DNA of 29,934 nt from NCBI GenBank assembly GCA_038883715.1, contig JAVZLS010000015.1, positions 1 to 29,934 on the forward strand, given 5' to 3'. This document shows positions 13,861 to 29,822 of the stretch, one piece after another. Under the pieces are notes generated by a model. That model did no database searches, had not been told where the DNA came from, and worked only from the letters and a program-made list of their open reading frames with translations. The translations under genes were made by a program, and so were the position numbers. The stretch comes from Candidatus Bathyarchaeia archaeon. GTDB lineage: Archaea; Thermoproteota; Bathyarchaeia; Bathyarchaeales; Bathycorpusculaceae. Every line of letters begins with the position of its first letter. The first letter of the stretch is position 1.

Positions 13861-14994
13861 TTATTGGAGTGTTGGCGGAATGAAAACCCTAAGCCTGTTC
13901 AAGGCGTTGAGCTTTTCTTTGCCTCCCAGTTTTGCGTCTTCAATAGCCCTTCTTAGGATTTGTATGGATTCATCCATGGCTTTTCTGTCCACTGGGTAGG
14001 GGACGCCGTCTTTTCCGCCATAGGCAAAGGAGTATTTCACAGGGTCTTTCCAGCTTGGCTTTTCGCCGTAAATCAGTTCTGCTATTAGGGCTAAGCCGCG
14101 GACTGTTGCGGCGCCAACGCCCTTAAAGCCTAAAAGCTCTTCGTAGTTTCTTGGTTTGAACTCGTAGACTTGTTGTAGGGCTTTCCAGTTTATGTTGGCT
14201 GGCATGGATAAAACGTCTATTGGGTAGTCTGCCCATTGGGTTTGGGCTGTTTTTGGTAGCCACTCTTCGAGGGATTTTTGGTAGGCTGGGCGTATGGACA
14301 TTATTAGGCGCATAAGCTTCTTGGGTGGCTCACATGCAAGGTCCACTGAGGCTTTTCTGCAGCCTTCGCTTTCTTTTGCCGTCATGTCTAGGGCTATTTC
14401 GCGTTTTGCATCGCCCACTATGGCGTTGTGGGGTTCCACCACAAAGTTTTTGATGTTTTCTGAAAGCCAGTGGTAGCGTCTTGCTGTTCGGTCTTGGGGG
14501 CACATGCCTTGCTGTATAACTGCCCATCGCCCATTCTCGTCTACGAAGAAGGCGTGGTGGTAGAGCTGGTAGCCAGCTTGAATGGCTGTGTTGTCAACTT
14601 TTGCGCTCATCCGGCTGGCGTACTGTAGGCTTCCTATCTTATTTTCTGAAAAACCAAACTTTTCACCCACTAACCCAATTTCAAGGGGCGTCTGCCTAGA
14701 AAATTTTCCTTTTCCGCCGCAGACCGCCACACCATGCTCTTCTGGAATTACTGCTTGCTTCAAAACTCCAGTGACGACTGTTGTTACGCCTGATGAGTGC
14801 CAGTCATAACCCAAAACACAGCCTAAAGCCTGAAACCAAAAGGGGTCTGATAGGCGTTTCAGAAACTCGCCAGTTCCATACTCGTCTATGATTATAGTTA
14901 CTATTTCTCGGGCTAGTTTTCGCATGCGGACAACTAGCCATTTTGGAGCCTTACCATAGTGGAGGGGGAGCTTAGCAACACCTGTTCTTTGCAT
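13861..14994 (-). CDS. DUF763 family protein
   Basis: Motifs LPLHYGKAPKWL, DPFWFQALGCVLGYDWHSSGVTT and FAYGGKDGVPYPVD; helix-hairpin-helix-like LLGFKGVGAATVR. Confidence 0.85.
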   Translation of the reverse strand: MQRTGVAKLPLHYGKAPKWLVVRMRKLAREIVTIIIDEYGTGEFLKRLSDPFWFQALGCVLGYDWHSSGVTTVVTGVLKQAVIPEEHGVAVCGGKGKFSRQTPLEIGLVGEKFGFSENKIGSLQYASRMSAKVDNTAIQAGYQLYHHAFFVDENGRWAVIQQGMCPQDRTARRYHWLSENIKNFVVEPHNAIVGDAKREIALDMTAKESEGCRKASVDLACEPPKKLMRLIMSIRPAYQKSLEEWLPKTAQTQWADYPIDVLSMPANINWKALQQVYEFKPRNYEELLGFKGVGAATVRGLALIAELIYGEKPSWKDPVKYSFAYGGKDGVPYPVDRKAMDESIQILRRAIEDAKLGGKEKLNALNRLRVFIPPTLQ

Positions 14995-15053: not shown

Positions 15054-15701
15054 TCAATTTTGCTGCTGGCGGCGAACTGCAAAATTGATAGCCCCTCTAT
15101 AGAATTTTAGCGAAAAGGTCACATTTGTGCTTCCTAAAAGCCACAAAACACTACCCTCTATAGTTTTTGGTCGAATGGTTATGGTTTGTTTTTGTTGATG
15201 TTTCTTTGCGGTTTTTATGATGTTGCGGATTTCTATTGCTATTATTAAGGTTGCCGGGATTATTATTAATAGTGTGAAGCCTATTGGGGTTCTTACAAAA
15301 TAGCCTAGATATCCTATGTAAGGGATTATGGCTATTACCTTTCCTATGACGTCTTGTTTTTTGACTATCCATGTGTCTGGGTCTTCGTTGGCGTCCCCTT
15401 TTGTTATGAAGCCTTGGCTTGTTATGCCTATTATTCTGTGGGTTACCGTTGTGGGATGTTCTGTTTCAACTTTGAAGCATATTATATCGCCTACCTTCAA
15501 GGTTTCTGGGTTGGCTGGTTTTATGACGACTATGCTTCCGACTGGGATGGTGGGCTCCATGCTTCCTGTATGGACCGGTTCGTAGAGGGTGTCACCCCAG
15601 AGCGAGACAGGTCTGTAGAAGACTAGGAAGATTATGAGGAATGTGGCTATGAGGGCGTATATGGCTATTTTCAGGATTTTCCTAATTTTTGGGTTTAGCA
15701 T
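15054..15701 (-). CDS. sipW: Signal peptidase I, SipW/ER type (S26B)
   Basis: TGSMEPT (catalytic Ser), VTHRI (His) and TKGDANEDPD; N- and C-terminal transmembrane segments; overlaps the upstream gene. Confidence 0.9.
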   Translation of the reverse strand: MLNPKIRKILKIAIYALIATFLIIFLVFYRPVSLWGDTLYEPVHTGSMEPTIPVGSIVVIKPANPETLKVGDIICFKVETEHPTTVTHRIIGITSQGFITKGDANEDPDTWIVKKQDVIGKVIAIIPYIGYLGYFVRTPIGFTLLIIIPATLIIAIEIRNIIKTAKKHQQKQTITIRPKTIEGSVLWLLGSTNVTFSLKFYRGAINFAVRRQQQN

Positions 15702-16261
15702 TTCATACCATCATGAGTTGGTGGAAAGCGCACTGTTATAGCTATATAGGCTGTTACTGTTAGTCCTTGATATTCGTTTCCGGCTGTGGCGGGCATCCAT
15801 ACACTGATCTGTAGTGTGACGCTGTCTTTTGGTGGAACAGCCCTCTTGCCATAAACTTTTATACCTTCTGCTAAATTGCTTAGGGTTCCGTTGTAGAGGA
15901 GGTTTGGTTTTTCTCGTCTACCTTTTCCAAGCTCTAAAATTTCTATTTGCAGTCCATCGGCTAGATGGGTGTCTCCTTCAAAAGTGGCATTGAGCATGCA
16001 AATTCGGAAGGGCAAATCTCCAACATTAATCAGTCTTAAATATTTTGTGACCTTTGGGCGTCCGGGGTAGAAGTGACCGTCCACATCTGGATGGAAAAGG
16101 GGAACTTTTGGCGAGATCTCCATGTCAAATTTAATTTTCTTCCCGAAATAAATTGTGCAAGCTGACGCTGTAGGATCATCAGAAGCTAAATTTAGGCTTA
16201 TGAATAACAAAAGGATTGTTAATAATATCAGTACGGCTTTTTTCTTATACACTTTAATCAA
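15695..16261 (-). CDS. Exported TasA/CalY-like accessory protein lacking the SipW-type N-terminus
   Basis: Basic-hydrophobic N-terminus. FYPG...KYLRLINVGDL and VWMPATAGNEYQG resemble the TasA/CalY core. Confidence 0.55.
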   Translation of the reverse strand: MIKVYKKKAVLILLTILLLFISLNLASDDPTASACTIYFGKKIKFDMEISPKVPLFHPDVDGHFYPGRPKVTKYLRLINVGDLPFRICMLNATFEGDTHLADGLQIEILELGKGRREKPNLLYNGTLSNLAEGIKVYGKRAVPPKDSVTLQISVWMPATAGNEYQGLTVTAYIAITVRFPPTHDGMKC

Positions 16262-16341: not shown

Positions 16342-16944
16342 TTATGGGTTTTGAGATAGTAGAAATGTGAATGTGATGCTGAGGGTATCTGTCTGTGCTT
16401 GGTTGTCAACACCACCGTGTGTCCACCAGTCATAGAGTTCTACGACAAAGTCGACACCGCCATTAGCCTCAATTGGTTCGTTGATATCCATAAAGCTTGT
16501 TGGAAGATTTTTTATGAGCCCGTTAAAGATTATTTTATCTCCAGTGCTAATCCAGCCGTTGTGATCGTAGTCAAGGAACAGTCTCAAGTTGAGCACGTCG
16601 TCCAGTTCGCCTGTGTCAGCGCTGGTATCTCCCGCCTCTATTTCCGGCTCTGTGAGACCATTTTCTTCGCTGACAACTACGATGTTACTTATGTCTAGAT
16701 AGCCCATTATAGTACCAATGTTTTTGAGCGTTAATGAATAATGTGGCTGATTTCCAGGTCTTAGATTGTTCCAAGTGAAGGTTACTGGCACTCCGTTCTG
16801 GTCGTTTATTGTCAAGTCAAGTGAACCAGCACTGAATGTTGTTATGGTTGTTTCCGTGTCGCTGAATTGGGAGTATGTTCCCCAGCCGACTGCCAAGGCT
16901 ACTAGTCCGATTGCCAGTATTCCAACCAATATTTTCCTGTTCAT
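16342..16944 (-). CDS. TasA/CalY (camelysin, M73) family protein with SipW-type signal peptide
   Basis: MNRKIL-hydrophobic-GWGTYSQFSDTET..FSAGSLDL, NLRPG...LKNIG and the acidic ENGLTEPE...GEL motif. Confidence 0.85.
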   Translation of the reverse strand: MNRKILVGILAIGLVALAVGWGTYSQFSDTETTITTFSAGSLDLTINDQNGVPVTFTWNNLRPGNQPHYSLTLKNIGTIMGYLDISNIVVVSEENGLTEPEIEAGDTSADTGELDDVLNLRLFLDYDHNGWISTGDKIIFNGLIKNLPTSFMDINEPIEANGGVDFVVELYDWWTHGGVDNQAQTDTLSITFTFLLSQNP

Positions 16945-16983: not shown

Positions 16984-17538
16984 CTAAGTCTGCGTCAGAC
17001 TGAACGTTATCGTAAAGCCAACAACATCGCTCTGTATAACATCGCCCACAGACTCGTCAATACTGTAATTAACTGTGAATGTGACTGAAGCGCCAGCATT
17101 CAACGGATAGTTGGCTAAGCCTCCGCTCAAGACGCCATTGGCATATCCCTCGTAAACTACAGTTCCGTCAACGGTGATTTTCAAGTATAGATTTTCAGCA
17201 AGCTCCCCATAAGGTTCCGTGTCGTCAAGCACAAGTTCTGGCTCCGTCAGCCCATTCTCATTGTCAACAAGGTTGCTAAATGATATGGAAAGTTTGCCAT
17301 TAACAGACCCGATGTTCTTTATAACCACGCTTTCGCTACCGCTGCATCCGGGCAGCAGGTCCGCTAGATCAATCTTCCAGCTTACTGGGTCATCGTCGCC
17401 GACCTTCAAGTTCAATGTTCCAGCAGTAAAAGTCGCCGTAGTCGTCTCCGTGTCGCTAAACTGGCTATAGGTTCCCCAGCCGAGAACAAAGCCAACAAGC
17501 CCAATAATGAATAGGCTTACCAATATTTTCTTGTCCAT
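16984..17538 (-). CDS. TasA/CalY (camelysin, M73) family protein with SipW-type signal peptide
   Basis: MDKKIL-hydrophobic-GWGTYSQFSDTET..FTAGTLNL, DLLPG...IKNIG and ENGLTEPE...GEL. ATG 17538 follows a GAGGTGA RBS. Confidence 0.85.
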   Translation of the reverse strand: MDKKILVSLFIIGLVGFVLGWGTYSQFSDTETTTATFTAGTLNLKVGDDDPVSWKIDLADLLPGCSGSESVVIKNIGSVNGKLSISFSNLVDNENGLTEPELVLDDTEPYGELAENLYLKITVDGTVVYEGYANGVLSGGLANYPLNAGASVTFTVNYSIDESVGDVIQSDVVGFTITFSLTQT

Positions 17539-17559
17539 TTCCGCATCACCTCTCCCTTC

Positions 17560-17718
17560 TCCTCTTTTTCGGGGACCTATCATCGCGAGACGCTTTAACG
17601 GGGGCTAATCCCCATTTTAGTCCCCCGGACGCCAGCACATTTAACGTGCCCCAGCGTCAAGGCACGGGTTAGGCCGGCCTAACCACATGGACTATTCTAA
17701 ACACCAATAGCCTAACCA
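17560..17718 (-). promoter_or_regulatory. Structured 5' leader (candidate cis-regulatory RNA) of the TasA/SipW operon
   Basis: Four consecutive hairpins (17690-17712, 17667-17684, 17628-17658, 17599-17627) with alternative pairing partners at 17589-17594 and 17571-17577. Confidence 0.55.
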
Positions 17719-17780
17719 AAATATAATGGAAAAAAGGAATTTGAAATAAGCGTTACGAAGATTTTTTCTAGAAAATTCCT

Positions 17781-18899
17781 CTAGTCAGACAAGCGTTTCC
17801 TATCGTTACATATGTGCTTGCTGCAGACCAGAAATGGAATAGTCAACAAAATGAATATTCCAAGTAGCATGAAATAGCCAAAATAATTCTCCTCGGCGAT
17901 AAGAAGAACTGTGGGCACGAGATTGACTATTCTTCCAAGCATTAAGCCCACCTCCATTAGAACTAGGATGCTTGCATAATGTTCTCGACTGAAGGAGTTT
18001 CCATAGTGGGCGAACCATGAAATGGTAAAGGCGCTTGCCAAACCAGACAAGGCGGATAAAAGCACTATCTGCTGTGGTGCGGTGGCATGCCCTATTAGGA
18101 AAAACCATACAGCGTTTAGCACAACGCCTATCACGGCGAATTCAACACGTCTCATCTTGACGTCTGAAAGCCAGTTAACCAGAAAAGTTATGGCGGAAAC
18201 CACAAGGCTTGTTAAGGCTAGGACAAAACCCATCCTGGAAGTTGTTTCAGAAATCCTGTTAATGAAAAGGGGATAAGCCAACCAATAGGCCTCGGACATA
18301 CCAAAAATTATGAAAGTTATGAAGAAAATGGAGATTCTACGCCCCCTTGGGATTAACAAACCATGAGCCTCACGTCTAAACTTCACTCGCGTAAAAAAGA
18401 TTAAAGCAGCAAAATAAAGAGCCACACACAAGCCCAGAAGAATTGGAAAACCAAAATTTTCTATGATTAAGCCGCCAACCGCTGGACCGGCAATGCTAGC
18501 AATTGATGGAATTATTATGGAGAATAGACTTACTGAACGTGCCCTGACGGTGGACTCGCTTAACCTAAACTGTAGGAGATTGAAGCTTGGCCAAAAAGTG
18601 GCTATGCCCAACCCATAAGTGACGCCCAAAACCACCGGATTTTTAACATAAATTAGAAGTGTGTAGAAAACCATTGTGAAGAGCACGCCGAAGCATATCA
18701 CCCGCTCAAAATTTCTAACAAACCTAAGCAGAGTTATGGGTAAAAGCCCAATTATCGTGAAGGTGACCAGTAGCAAAACCGCTATTTGGCTAATGCTCAG
18801 TCCAAGTGTCACGTAGTAGACTGGCAGGAACATGCTTGTCATGTTGCTGGAAAAGAAGTATATGAAGGAAGCAACCCCAAGATTTTCAAAATCTCCCAT
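17781..18899 (-). CDS. MFS transporter
   Basis: 372 aa with about 12 transmembrane segments; IAGPAVGGLI and WLSDVKMRR are MFS-like motifs. Confidence 0.8.
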   Translation of the reverse strand: MGDFENLGVASFIYFFSSNMTSMFLPVYYVTLGLSISQIAVLLLVTFTIIGLLPITLLRFVRNFERVICFGVLFTMVFYTLLIYVKNPVVLGVTYGLGIATFWPSFNLLQFRLSESTVRARSVSLFSIIIPSIASIAGPAVGGLIIENFGFPILLGLCVALYFAALIFFTRVKFRREAHGLLIPRGRRISIFFITFIIFGMSEAYWLAYPLFINRISETTSRMGFVLALTSLVVSAITFLVNWLSDVKMRRVEFAVIGVVLNAVWFFLIGHATAPQQIVLLSALSGLASAFTISWFAHYGNSFSREHYASILVLMEVGLMLGRIVNLVPTVLLIAEENYFGYFMLLGIFILLTIPFLVCSKHICNDRKRLSD

Positions 18900-19586: not shown

Positions 19587-21494
19587 GTGCAGCTTTCCCC
19601 ATTGAGCGACGCTGTTAGGCGAACATGCAACATACTAAAACAAGGAGCCACAATGCAAGTTTTAGACTATGAAAAGCGTTTCTCATCACTAAAAACCTTC
19701 TACGAAAGCCTCCTCTCAAACCTAATAAAAACAGATTTCCCCACAAAAGAAGCCTACGAAACGGCAAAAGAATTCTTCGGCGCCACGTCCGTCCGCTTTG
19801 CTGGCATAGATGGAACCATGTACTCGCGTCCCCTCTTCGACCTAGTAGTCTTCTTCGGAGGAGCCTACGCCTCAACGGGAACAATAACCCTCCACGAGGA
19901 CAAACCACCAGAAGTCAAGTATGACGAGCGAACAGCCAAGCACGGCGCTGGCATATCAAGCGTGGTGCCGATTTATGTGAACGAAATTCCAGACGTGGAC
20001 CAAACATTCTTTGAGGTTTCACAACCAGACGAAGTTAGCCTTGGAAAACCCCTAACAGAAGAGTCGATAATAAACAATGCAACTGTGGCTAACTGGATAA
20101 TGACCTTCGCCGAATACTATTTGGCTTATAAGCTCGCCACAGACAACGAACAAAAGGTTCGAATAATCCTAATGGATAGAAGCCTATCCATAGAACGCGC
20201 AAGCCTCCTCTACGATACTTCGAAGCGAGCCCTATGGGAAGCAAAAAGCAACATCCTAGGCTACAAAATAGACGGAGAATCCATAGACACAAATGAACTA
20301 ACAATAGCAAGGCACTTTGTCTGCAACACGCATCTAGGCTTGCCACCACCAAGGGCAGACTACATACACCACGCCATAATAGACCTCCTAAAACGCAAAG
20401 GTTCATTGACAAAGAAGCAGATACTAGCAGAATTCGGCATAAAAGACGAAAAACGAGCGAAAAGAGTGGAGCGAAGCCTAAAAAGCCTAATAAAAAGGGG
20501 CTTCCTAAACGAGAAAAGCGAAATCTACACACTAAACAGCAAGTATGCACGGACTTGGGAAAGAATAAAAAAGCTTGTGAAAAACATAGGCGACAGATTC
20601 TTCTTCACAGAAAACCCAGAAACAGCAAACCTAATGAAAATTGTCAAAGACGGAAAAGAACACTGGCTCACAACCCTAGACATAGCCTTCTTAACACTTT
20701 TCACACTGCACATGCTAATGGAAGAATGCTGGAATAGGCGCATACTCCTAATAGGCGTCACAAAAGACACAGCAGCAAGAGACTTCAAACGCCAACTAAT
20801 CCCGATAATGGGCAACAACGACTTGCTAAACGCAAACATCACAAGCGAAGAGCTTGAAAAACTACCCAACACAGACCGCATGATCCTCCAATCAGCAAGC
20901 ATCCTAAACGCCGAAAAAATAACGCCACCATGGAGCCTAATAGAGTATGATTCAGCCTTCAGAACAATGGTGCCCGACAAACAAAAAAGGAAAGGCTACG
21001 TTTCAGGAGCCATAAAAAACAAGATAGGCTTAGAAAAAGTCTTCTTAAAAACTTACGTACAGCTAAGCCAAGCAAAAACAGACCCAATGCTACGGAGCAA
21101 CGTCCTCCTAGTAGACCGCCTCGCTTACCCAGAATACGATTACAAACCAGAAAACATCGTGGAATTTTGGAACGAACTCAGCGACGGAACAAAAGAACCA
21201 GTAGAAGTAATCCTATACATAGACAAAAACGTGCCAAATAAGCTGCAAAACCTAACCATGAACGTCTTGGTGGCCATGGCGCCGTCAAACATACCAGAAG
21301 CCTTCGGCCACAACACACCACTATTCATAGCGGACAAAATTGCCAAGTGGAACTACAGCCAATTCAAAAGAGTCGTGGACACAACAGCCGAGTGGATCCT
21401 CAATAACCATAAATTAAGAAGATTCATATTCTATATGAGCACTTTCAGAGAGAGGCGAACAGCCATTGAAGCCGCAAGGAGAGAACAAATTTAA
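19587..21494 (+). CDS. nurA: NurA-family nuclease, enlarged, with an internal winged-helix insertion
   Basis: RNase H-like NurA motifs AGIDGT, TFAEY, ILMDRSL, LIGVTKD and GHNTPLFIADKIAK; overlaps herA. Confidence 0.75.
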   Translation: MQLSPLSDAVRRTCNILKQGATMQVLDYEKRFSSLKTFYESLLSNLIKTDFPTKEAYETAKEFFGATSVRFAGIDGTMYSRPLFDLVVFFGGAYASTGTITLHEDKPPEVKYDERTAKHGAGISSVVPIYVNEIPDVDQTFFEVSQPDEVSLGKPLTEESIINNATVANWIMTFAEYYLAYKLATDNEQKVRIILMDRSLSIERASLLYDTSKRALWEAKSNILGYKIDGESIDTNELTIARHFVCNTHLGLPPPRADYIHHAIIDLLKRKGSLTKKQILAEFGIKDEKRAKRVERSLKSLIKRGFLNEKSEIYTLNSKYARTWERIKKLVKNIGDRFFFTENPETANLMKIVKDGKEHWLTTLDIAFLTLFTLHMLMEECWNRRILLIGVTKDTAARDFKRQLIPIMGNNDLLNANITSEELEKLPNTDRMILQSASILNAEKITPPWSLIEYDSAFRTMVPDKQKRKGYVSGAIKNKIGLEKVFLKTYVQLSQAKTDPMLRSNVLLVDRLAYPEYDYKPENIVEFWNELSDGTKEPVEVILYIDKNVPNKLQNLTMNVLVAMAPSNIPEAFGHNTPLFIADKIAKWNYSQFKRVVDTTAEWILNNHKLRRFIFYMSTFRERRTAIEAARREQI

Positions 21495-29474: not shown

Positions 29475-29548
29475 GCCGCCGTAGCTCAGAGTGGTAGAGC
29501 GGCTGGCTGTTAACCAGTCGGTCGTCGGTTCAAGTCCGACCGGCGGCG
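29475..29548 (+). tRNA. tRNA-Asn (GTT)
   Basis: Acceptor stem GCCGCCG/CGGCGGC, anticodon loop CTGTTAA, T loop GTTCAAG. No intron; CCA is not encoded. Confidence 0.96.
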
Positions 29549-29602
29549 CTTTTTCCATGCTTTTACCGAACCGGCGTACTGGGATCTGGTTCCCAGGGGG
29601 CG

Positions 29603-29745: not shown

Positions 29746-29822
29746 TGGGGCCGAGGCCGGGATTTGAACCCGGGCGCCGGGCTCCACAGGCCCGTAGGCT
29801 TCCAGGCTACCTCACCTCGGCC
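29746..29822 (-). tRNA. tRNA-His (GTG) with encoded G-1 and CCA
   Basis: G-GCCGAGG...CCTCGGC-C-CCA, anticodon loop CTGTGGA, T loop GTTCAAA. Confidence 0.95.

Follow-up and report, generated by a model that had tools for sequence, protein, structure and literature searches.

Tandem pseudoknots in a candidate family of mRNA leaders ahead of secreted-protein genes of Bathyarchaeia and related archaea

Introduction

Does the gap in front of an archaeal matrix-fibre operon carry a structured RNA, and could such an RNA control the genes behind it? The question is raised by a stretch of 29,934 nucleotides (nt) from Candidatus Bathyarchaeia archaeon (contig JAVZLS010000015.1 of assembly GCA_038883715.1), which was analysed at its full length and is called the window below. 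On its minus strand, a 242-nt intergenic gap flanked by an MFS transporter gene and a TasA-like gene holds the element under study, a putative leader of the operon that begins with the TasA-like gene. A preliminary description of positions 17560-17718 drew four consecutive hairpins there, saw mutually exclusive pairings among them, and proposed a switch-like leader or attenuator answering to a ligand or a protein.

Bathyarchaeia are abundant, and few or no pure cultures of them exist. To our knowledge, very few riboswitch classes or structured cis-regulatory RNAs have come from archaea, and we know of none tied to the secretome. A search of the full-text literature on riboswitches, structured RNAs and secreted-protein leaders of archaea, Bathyarchaeia or Thermoproteota (subscription journals and supplements lying outside the search) gave no description of the element, and none of the general archaeal surveys of cis-regulatory motifs among the literature matches listed concerns Bathyarchaeia.

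Here we compare the gap with homologous regions in other genomes and in metagenomes. We will argue that the stretch is, on comparative grounds, one copy of a widespread and previously undescribed family of pseudoknotted leaders in Bathyarchaeia and related archaea. The folded leader would constitute a new class within a known kind, the cis-acting mRNA leader. As a previously unrecognised RNA control element of archaea it is a good candidate.

Results

Comparison of homologues shows an RNA fold, conserved, strand-specific and pseudoknotted, immediately 5' of the Shine-Dalgarno sequence (SD) of secreted-protein genes. Covariation supports two H-type pseudoknots in tandem (H1/PK1 and H2/PK2), with GUUAAA after both stems and a further hairpin, H3, between H2 and a final run of C. 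In the window, the 95-nt core extends over 17571-17665 and has the following parts, listed in mRNA order.

17646-17665, minus strand: H1, a stem of five base pairs between GUGCC (17665-17661) and GGCAC (17650-17646); 96.5% of alignment cells paired, 5/5 pairs changed on both sides
17658-17651, minus strand: 5' strand of PK1, GACGCUGG, in the loop of H1; pairs with CUGGCGUC
17628-17645, minus strand: GUUAAA (17645-17640), a 4-nt linker, and the 3' strand of PK1, CUGGCGUC (17635-17628), which abuts H2
17599-17627, minus strand: H2, stem CGGGGG (17627-17622) and CCCCCG (17604-17599) with loop ACUAAAAUGGGGAUUAG; 99.6% of cells paired
17613-17609, minus strand: 5' strand of PK2, GGGGA, in the loop of H2; pairs with UCCCC
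17585-17593, minus strand: H3, hairpin GCG-UCU-CGC, variable in length and sequence across the family
17571-17575, minus strand: 3' strand of PK2, UCCCC, about 30 nt downstream of the loop GGGGA with which it pairs

The pairing was evaluated in an alignment of 76 sequences, called A7, which was fitted by covariance model (CM) to H1, H2 and H3 and not to PK1. When the nested helices and PK1 are taken together, 93.9% of 1749 cells form standard pairs and 17 of the 25 pairs are changed on both sides, which none of 500 shuffles matches; if the structures are slid by 1-3 columns, the pairing falls to only 36-50%. Whole-element MAFFT alignments (A1 and A2) misaligned the loops and were excluded from the pair counts. 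Pairs of the G.U type are frequent, the fifth pair of H1 being U.G in 24/76 sequences and the first pair of H3 G.U in 15/76. The helices can be placed on the strand of the downstream gene, because these pairs would become C-A mismatches on the opposite strand.

In PK1, 84.5% of the cells are paired and 7/8 pairs are changed on both sides. Cognate PK1 duplexes have an energy of −6.35 kcal/mol vs −3.83 ± 0.27 kcal/mol after partners are swapped between sequences, none of 5000 swaps reaches the cognate value, and the result stands within both sequence classes taken separately. For PK2, it is the length that varies, while the nucleotides scarcely do. In the 70 unique cores, the G-run of the loop and the C-run of the tail have lengths of 3/3 in 33 cases, 4/4 in 31, 4/3 in four, and 5/4 and 5/5 in one each, the combination 3/4 being absent; an extra AUN in the loop is invariably accompanied by an extra NU in the tail. 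The pairing of loop GGGGA with UCCCC, suggested as a pseudoknot in the preliminary description, is thus backed by this joint change of length. In both units a loop pairs with a 3' strand as in an H-type pseudoknot, with covariation by nucleotides in PK1 and by length in PK2.

H2 closes with C-G in 64 and A-U in 4 of the unique cores, its top pair is G-C in 65 and C-G in 5, and in genomes outside the class the stem is exchanged for CCGGGG/CCCCGG or CGGAGG/CCUCCG. H3 is far more variable, with 59 distinct sequences of 8-40 nt among the 70 cores; 63/70 fold better than the mean of their own shuffled versions, and all three basal pairs (3/3) are changed on both sides in A7. RNAalifold, applied to a MAFFT alignment of 59 unit-2 sequences, returned H2 and an invariant CU:AG extension only, having missed H3 because the variable hairpins were misaligned. 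It is important to point out that the core counts omit 9 of the 94 instances (L094, L081, L108, L089, L051, the second of L055, the second of L123, L009 and L014). Two of these are genuine variants, L014 with GAUGACAG and L094 with the tail CCU; L009 looks degenerate, and the remaining ones are weak matches or are cut by contig ends.

According to the preliminary description, a lack of conservation or covariation among homologues would speak against a leader; both are found, in the pairing of A7, in the PK1 swaps and in the PK2 lengths. What the comparison yields is a conserved, covarying, aptamer-like fold in a 5' untranslated region (UTR), as riboswitches have.

We now turn to the distribution of the element. 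The window's own genome (1.33 Mb in 41 contigs, 90.3% complete) contains one full copy of the core and one partial match of 38 nt by BLAST, and a single copy is also what model R2, built from 76 sequences, detects. With one full copy at home by BLAST and CM and 1-2 copies per genome elsewhere, the element does not behave as a genome-wide or dispersed repeat, of the kind of a miniature inverted-repeat transposable element, which the preliminary description had considered. BLAST of 41 related genomes gives full-length copies in three (G013, 98%; G005, 90%; G010, 75%) and further matches of 36-77 nt with 77-89% identity in other genera and families, always before signal-peptide genes. Model R1, built from three near-identical copies, matches 7/151 genomes sampled from the order. 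R2 matches 6/151 sampled from the class and 7/151 sampled from the phylum, four of the latter lying outside the class (families f45, 3/8, and f56, 1/3). A degenerate pattern for the H2 core finds at least 120 stretches in metagenome contigs, a scan that may include chance matches. Of 80 metagenome loci retrieved, 78 are confirmed by R1 at E <= 0.012 (72 at E <= 1e-4), nearly all over the full length of the model, and L104 and L121 give no CM match. The family is widespread yet patchy, with 1-2 copies per genome.

The hairpins as first drawn require some comment. A sequence check finds all four on the mRNA strand at the places claimed, and they are the following.

17712-17706 / 17696-17690, minus strand: hairpin 1, GGCUAUU/AAUAGUC
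17667-17684, minus strand: hairpin 2, called H0 here, GGUUAGG-CCGG-CCUAACC, directly 5' of H1
minus strand: hairpin 3 as first drawn, GACGCUG...UGGCGUC
17627-17599, minus strand: hairpin 4, CGGGGG...CCCCCG, which is H2

Hairpin 1 is seen in close relatives only, and a transcription start placed from the TATA-like box would cut through it. At the position of hairpin 2 there often is a hairpin, ending 0-2 nt 5' of H1 in 32 of 46 loci; the sequences differ, and support for it is weak, with a median z of −0.78 in the 46 loci. In hairpin 3 the outer strands are kept, paired as the pseudoknot PK1, and the inner GCACGU-UAA-AUGUGC is not kept: genome G005 already reads AAUUAC at this place, while preserving both H1 and PK1. 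The outer stem of hairpin 4 is the well-paired H2, with covariation in 2/6 pairs. Its inner CUAA/UUAG stem shows uncompensated variation, UUAG being replaced by UCAG or UGAG in 9/70 unique cores and by UCUAA in one more.

Folding of the single sequence is marginally better than chance. The minimum free energy of 17560-17718 is −61.4 kcal/mol (z −2.22, with 6/200 shuffles folding equally well), the 95-nt core alone has a z of −2.27, and the whole intergenic gap one of −2.64 in sense and −2.43 in antisense orientation. The mutually exclusive pairings that gave the element its switch-like appearance fare worse, as in partner-swap tests they are not kept beyond close relatives. For the alternative GACGCU:AGCGUC, swapped partners pair equally well or better in 1913/5000 cases in class I and in 118/5000 in class II, the latter a weak signal only. 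In terms of the family fold, this is the pairing of the H1 loop with AAAG and the 5' arm of H3, and its weak class II signal is driven by the window's own close relatives.

Between H2 and the tail, several nucleotides are invariant and can be drawn as an element resembling a kink turn (k-turn).

17594-17598, minus strand: UUAAA, invariant; UUA is proposed to pair with UAG (17579-17577), and the two A's to lie opposite the G and A of the k-turn-like element
17576-17584, minus strand: k-turn-like strand, with GAU bulge (17584-17582), GA (17581-17580), UAG (17579-17577) and G (17576)

In 54/70 cores the strand 3' of H3 reads Y-GAU-GA-UAG, opposite UUA-AA-G. In the drawing, H3 would be the C helix, followed by the GAU bulge, the non-canonical pairs G:A and A:A, and an NC helix of U-A, A-U and G.U. 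The pair G:Y closing H3 is G-C or G.U in 59/70 cores. GAUGAU occurs in 54/70 cores and a single GAU in 16/70; in the single-GAU cores H3 is longer and contains a UN/UNU internal loop. In the definition given by the available part of PMC6298567, a k-turn has a 3-nt bulge and then tandem G:A and A:G pairs, the whole lying between the C and NC helices. Measured by this standard, 54/70 cores have the GAU bulge and the GA, position 2n is A (giving A:A, not A:G), and 16/70 lack a 3-nt bulge. Nature does offer an example of A at 2n, since Kt-23 of T. solenopsae, described in the available part of PMC3985660, is a k-turn of this sort to which L7Ae binds. The same part of PMC6298567 describes GAU bulges and G:A pairs in archaeal l7ae leaders, and reports that Watson-Crick 3b:3n pairs block the ion-induced folding of k-turns, which L7Ae still folds. 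The window's genome has two matches to L7Ae-family genes. K-turns in riboswitches are the topic of PMC4316175.

Since the UUA:UAG helix is invariant, covariation cannot test it. In 2/76 sequences, the change of U.G to U-A (tail UAA) improves it. The CUA of the loop was considered as another partner of the tail UAG and rejected, being broken by the tail UAA (L065, L045) and by the loop ACUU (L010, L074); UUA is preferred because only L169 breaks UUA:UAG. Another reading that was discarded is that of CUGAUGA as part of a hammerhead: C precedes GAU in 41/70 cores and the required U in 28 only, and no GAAA strand follows. One degenerate copy, L009 (G010:C7, 1480-1579, minus strand), has GUGAAGG in place of GUUAAAG, is without GAUGAUAG and has no signal-peptide gene behind it; it may be a decaying leader.

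There are also variations on the overall plan. In L125, L063, L053 and L127 the hairpin 5' of H1 is itself of the GUGCC...GGCAC type with a GGGAG loop, which gives three pseudoknot-type modules in a row. In L002 1512-1580 (= G000:C12, about 40086-40154), L013, L016 and L123 6754-6818 the leader has a short form, consisting of H0, GUGCC-GAGGGAG-GGCAC and GUUAAAUAUA-CCC, with the SD that serves the gene of a secreted ...FAYAHW... protein directly after it. With R1 the short form scores only 14-16 bits; its loop GGG and downstream CCC give it the look of one minimal pseudoknot built on the same plan.

Upstream and downstream of the fold, the following signals can be recognised.

17766-17773, minus strand: palindrome TTCTAGAA, between the MFS stop codon (17781) and the TATA-like box
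17719-17726, minus strand: TATA-like box TTATATTT
17539-17570, minus strand: purine-rich spacer with the SD GGGAGAGGUGAU (17556-17545)

A TATA-like word is present 50-100 nt upstream of H1 in 23/45 loci by word list, and in nearly all displayed loci by eye; in loci outside the class a TATA-like box stands 12-45 nt before the first hairpin. The spacing from TATA box to start in archaea is usually about 26 nt, and because of this spacing we infer that transcription starts near 17696 (about ±5). Words of the TTCTAGA/TTCTATA type (TTCTAGAA/TTCTATAG type) occur 50-170 nt upstream of H1, ahead of the TATA-like box, in 20/45 loci vs 55/1712 background windows. The palindrome TTCTAGAA is a possible binding site for a transcription factor, belonging to the promoter region of the DNA and not to the RNA fold, and the motif-carrying genes may also be co-regulated at the DNA level through a shared factor at such palindromes.

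A metatranscriptome contig of 125 nt from a close relative spans 17515-17635, joining the coding region, the SD, PK2, H3, H2 and the PK1 strand; it has three differences and one gap relative to the window, is a contig and not reads, and comes from a library in which DNA may be present. By reaching 17635, the contig speaks against a start of transcription that lies downstream of about 17600, which the preliminary description had named as speaking against a leader, with the reservation that it was assembled and stems from a relative. RNA run X2 covers the coding region only, up to 17538, and 17636-17780 is without RNA contig cover, a gap that proves nothing. In run X3, further copies of the H2 core (window 17590-17629) are found in RNA-library contigs, one at depth 464.7; motif-carrying leaders may be abundant in the X3 community, contig depth being a poor measure of expression.

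In 70/70 cores the fold is followed by an SD-like word, at a median of 8 nt past the C-run (range 1-22), and the median distance from the fold to the first start codon past the SD is 19 nt. Purines make up 86% of the spacer and C 3%. Archaeal transcription termination uses oligo-U, and a run of five or more U within 40 nt after the fold occurs in 0/70 cores. An attenuator, the second option of the preliminary description, is unlikely because no U-run follows the fold. The C-run was also considered as an anti-SD and rejected, as it fits class II only loosely (UCCCC vs GGGA), and the SD regions of class I are without GGG.

The leader stands on the mRNA strand of a fibre operon, as the preliminary description had it, with genes matching PF12389 and TIGR04088 downstream. 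The genes concerned are these.

17781-18899, minus strand: MFS transporter gene, upstream neighbour of the leader, stop codon side at 17781
16984-17538, minus strand: gene 1 of the operon, TasA-like protein (Peptidase_M73) with SipW-type signal peptide; PF12389 E 2.1e-08, TIGR04088 23.4 bits vs a cut-off of 19, both searched with 16984-17541, which is one codon too long at the 5' end
16342-16944, minus strand: second TasA-like gene of the operon
15695-16261, minus strand: open reading frame (ORF) of the operon without assigned function
15054-15701, minus strand: SipW/archaeal-type signal peptidase I of the operon; TIGR02228, 117.5 bits

The likely start codon of the first TasA-like gene is the ATG at 17538-17536 (184 residues), which is preceded by the SD. 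An in-frame ATG in the GAUGAU element (17581-17583, minus strand) makes a mechanical ORF list begin the gene at 17583 (199 residues); the SD-preceded ATG at 17538 is more likely the start than 17583. A signal peptidase I sharing an operon with two TasA-like genes follows the logic of the bacterial tapA-sipW-tasA operon. For the operon of the bundling pili of Pyrobaculum, the available part of PMC9245690 reports no dedicated peptidase nearby, and a term search of this part of the paper, on archaeal TasA-like pili, gives no mention of promoters, UTRs or riboswitches.

Across the family, 65 distinct downstream proteins of at least 100 residues were compared with Pfam. Peptidase_M73/TasA/camelysin is found in 17 (one below the cut-off), Trypsin in six, VWA in three, and Ig-like/DUF11/SdrD-type domains in three; 36 have no match, and many of these have the N-terminus ...FAYAHW... 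in common. A strongly hydrophobic stretch resembling a signal peptide is present within the first 45 residues of 65/65. The crude background for such N-termini is high (100/181 ORFs of the same loci), because neighbouring genes also encode secreted or membrane proteins and spurious ORFs were counted. Elsewhere in the window, we note a 635-residue ORF at 19587-21494 (plus strand) with a weak match to NurA (E 4.8e-4, below the cut-off), a DUF763 protein at 13861-14994 (minus strand), tRNA-Asn at 29475-29549 (plus strand) and tRNA-His at 29746-29821 (minus strand).

Discussion

That the element is a real structured element of a 5' UTR seems to us nearly certain. How it would work can be outlined as follows. 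The core at 17571-17665, with H0 and the SD, would form the 5' untranslated leader of the TasA-like/SipW operon. UUA would pair with UAG, and GAU-GA opposite AA would produce a k-turn-like bend with A at 2n, for the folding of which L7Ae is probably needed. The whole leader would then stack into one compact body ending about 8 nt before the SD, inside the ribosome footprint, and this body would be the binding site for a trans-acting factor. The near-invariant unpaired nucleotides ACUAA, GUUAAAG and GAUGAUAG may be the surface recognised by the ligand or protein. Once bound, the factor would alter how readily the 30S subunit reaches the neighbouring SD, or how long the mRNA lasts. In this way the leader would act in cis, either on the initiation of translation or on the stability of the message, and the result would be a co-regulation of secreted matrix-fibre, protease and adhesin-like genes.

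We consider it somewhat probable that the leader responds to a ligand or a protein in this way. A small molecule as the factor, which would make the leader a riboswitch, is a tentative choice, and a protein that binds RNA, for instance L7Ae or a specialised regulator, a slightly less likely one. The full proposal, that of a new archaea-specific riboswitch aptamer with a protein-assisted k-turn, which would sense a nutrient or a signalling molecule and turn the whole set of matrix-fibre, protease and adhesin genes of Bathyarchaeia and related Thermoproteota on or off, is likewise put forward tentatively. In a bolder variant, the leader would be a tag by which secretome mRNAs are either targeted to the membrane or shielded from 5' exonucleases. 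It is important to note that the motif is some 60-100 nt long, with a covariation-supported fold, hundreds of natural variants and a sharp gene association, and is thus directly testable in vitro. It could reveal how biofilm fibres and extracellular proteases are controlled in Bathyarchaeia, whose gene regulation is undescribed, and it would extend the known range of RNA structures by a tandem-pseudoknot architecture and by a natural k-turn whose position 2n is A.

A number of observations weigh against a sensing leader with a k-turn. Ligand, protein partner and expression platform are proposals only; the SD is part of a purine-rich stretch beyond the fold and is not visibly sequestered; and the switch-type alternative pairings are not conserved. 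The 3-nt bulge, and hence a true k-turn, is not universal, being absent from 16/70 cores. Covariation has no bearing on the UUA:UAG helix or on the loop ACUAA, since both are invariant, and L169 (GUGAAAG) and L014 (GAUGACAG) break one proposed pair each. The pair counts for H1, H2 and H3 lean to the model to which A7 was fitted. The folding of the single sequence has weak significance. The start position was placed by spacing, and the RNA support consists of one 125-nt contig of a relative, from a library possibly containing DNA. Finally, an occurrence in about 4% of the sampled genomes, with 1-2 copies in each, is unusual for a general regulon.

The leader might instead sense nothing and be a constitutive structural stabiliser or enhancer, its compact 5' body sparing the mRNAs of abundant secreted proteins 5'-to-3' decay or keeping the purine-rich SD region unpaired, a role for which the stabilising 5' hairpins of bacterial mRNAs, that of ompA among them, set a precedent. 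There is a single conserved fold with no conserved alternative, the SD is always outside it in the 86%-purine stretch, the inferred start places the fold near the 5' end of the mRNA, the downstream genes are structural or extracellular and plausibly highly expressed, and another copy of the core is in the RNA-library contig of depth 464.7, for what such a depth is worth as a measure of expression. However, near-invariant unpaired ACUAA, GUUAAAG and GAUGAUAG across archaeal classes exceed what a generic hairpin needs and point to specific recognition, and the element is rare and patchy, while a general stabiliser would be expected on many abundant mRNAs. We regard a purely structural role as rather unlikely. 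A small pseudoknotted fold with highly conserved junction nucleotides would also suit a self-cleaving ribozyme that processes the 5' UTR, either of a new class or distantly pistol-like, as unit 1 recalls the 5' half of pistol. This is very unlikely, since the Pistol model and all other ribozyme models of Rfam are unmatched (region 17450-17850 at E <= 10; eight diverse loci at E <= 1), the 4-nt linker between GUUAAA and the PK1 strand leaves no room for a helix equivalent to P2, and, as a weak point, the RNA-library contig crosses the whole of unit 2 uncut.

The same letters could, in principle, act at the level of DNA, with the palindromes as operators for dimeric factors and the GTTAAA boxes as internal TATA boxes. 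GGTTAGGCCGGCCTAACC is indeed a perfect DNA palindrome, and gives BLAST-type matches on both strands, and GTTAAAT is TATA-like and lies about 40 nt before the ATG in short-form loci. Against this, the G.U pairs make the helices strand-specific, PK1 and PK2 covary between separate segments that are not palindromic, no fixed promoter spacing can be reconciled with an H3 whose length ranges over 8-40 nt while its flanks stay the same, a start set by GTTAAA would fall in H2 or in or behind the conserved SD, and the RNA-library contig extends to 17635. DNA elements are accordingly judged highly improbable. Even less credit is given to an independent gene for a small RNA, C/D-box-like or otherwise trans-acting, that merely lies upstream. 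GAUGA does resemble a C box, and k-turn-like elements are typical of archaeal small RNAs, but leader and downstream gene invariably share a strand, the distance between the leader's end and the SD of that gene has a median of 8 nt with a U-run terminator between them in 0/70 cores, and the leader has neither a box D or guide architecture nor a match to a small RNA in Rfam.

Comparison with Known Systems

The preliminary description could match the element to no known RNA class, and the covariance-model search of the window and of eight family members gives the same answer. With the 4227 models of Rfam 15, the whole window yields two tRNAs only at gathering thresholds, the region 17450-17850 three short sub-threshold matches at E <= 10, none of them relevant, and the eight diverse members no match at E <= 1. 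Cyclic dinucleotides, raised as ligands in view of bacterial biofilm genes, are not favoured: there is no match to the c-di-GMP-I, c-di-GMP-II or c-di-AMP ydaO models, and GGDEF (PF00990) and DAC (PF02457) domains have no matches in the window's own genome, where a completeness of 90.3% means that their absence is not proven.

The likeness to known systems is therefore one of architecture. The 5' half of the pistol ribozyme has a 5-bp (base pair) hairpin, a loop pseudoknot of about 6-8 bp and an A-rich linker, and unit 1 appears to resemble it in its hairpin, loop pseudoknot and A-rich GUUAAA linker; unlike pistol, it has no match to the Rfam model and no P2-equivalent helix. With the L7Ae-binding k-turn leaders of l7ae mRNAs, as given in the available part of PMC6298567, the element would share the GAU bulge and G:A-type pairs, a position in the 5' UTR near the SD, and Watson-Crick 3b:3n. 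It differs from them in having A and not G at 2n, which is rare (the precedent being Kt-23 of T. solenopsae, in the available part of PMC3985660), and in its larger pseudoknotted fold. Unlike these leaders, 16/70 cores are without the 3-nt bulge, and the genes served encode secreted proteins, not L7Ae.

The c-di-GMP-II riboswitch is a pseudoknotted aptamer that contains a k-turn. Unlike the c-di-GMP-II and c-di-GMP-I riboswitches, the element has different conserved nucleotides and matches neither model, and a search of the window's genome, complete to 90.3%, yields neither GGDEF nor DAC; like them, it precedes genes for pili, adhesins and secreted proteases and not metabolic genes, and it may work alike. 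In the preQ1-II riboswitch, which stands right before the SD, loop 3 of an H-type pseudoknot contains a hairpin. Here, there is no likeness in sequence or model (RF01054 is not matched), PK2 takes as its 3' strand not the SD itself but a C-run about 8 nt ahead of it, and the leader is archaeal, often in tandem with a second pseudoknot, and serves genes without a link to queuosine. In its layout, however, unit 2 is like preQ1-II, with a loop that pairs downstream, an extra hairpin in the connecting strand, and a place next to the ribosome-binding site.

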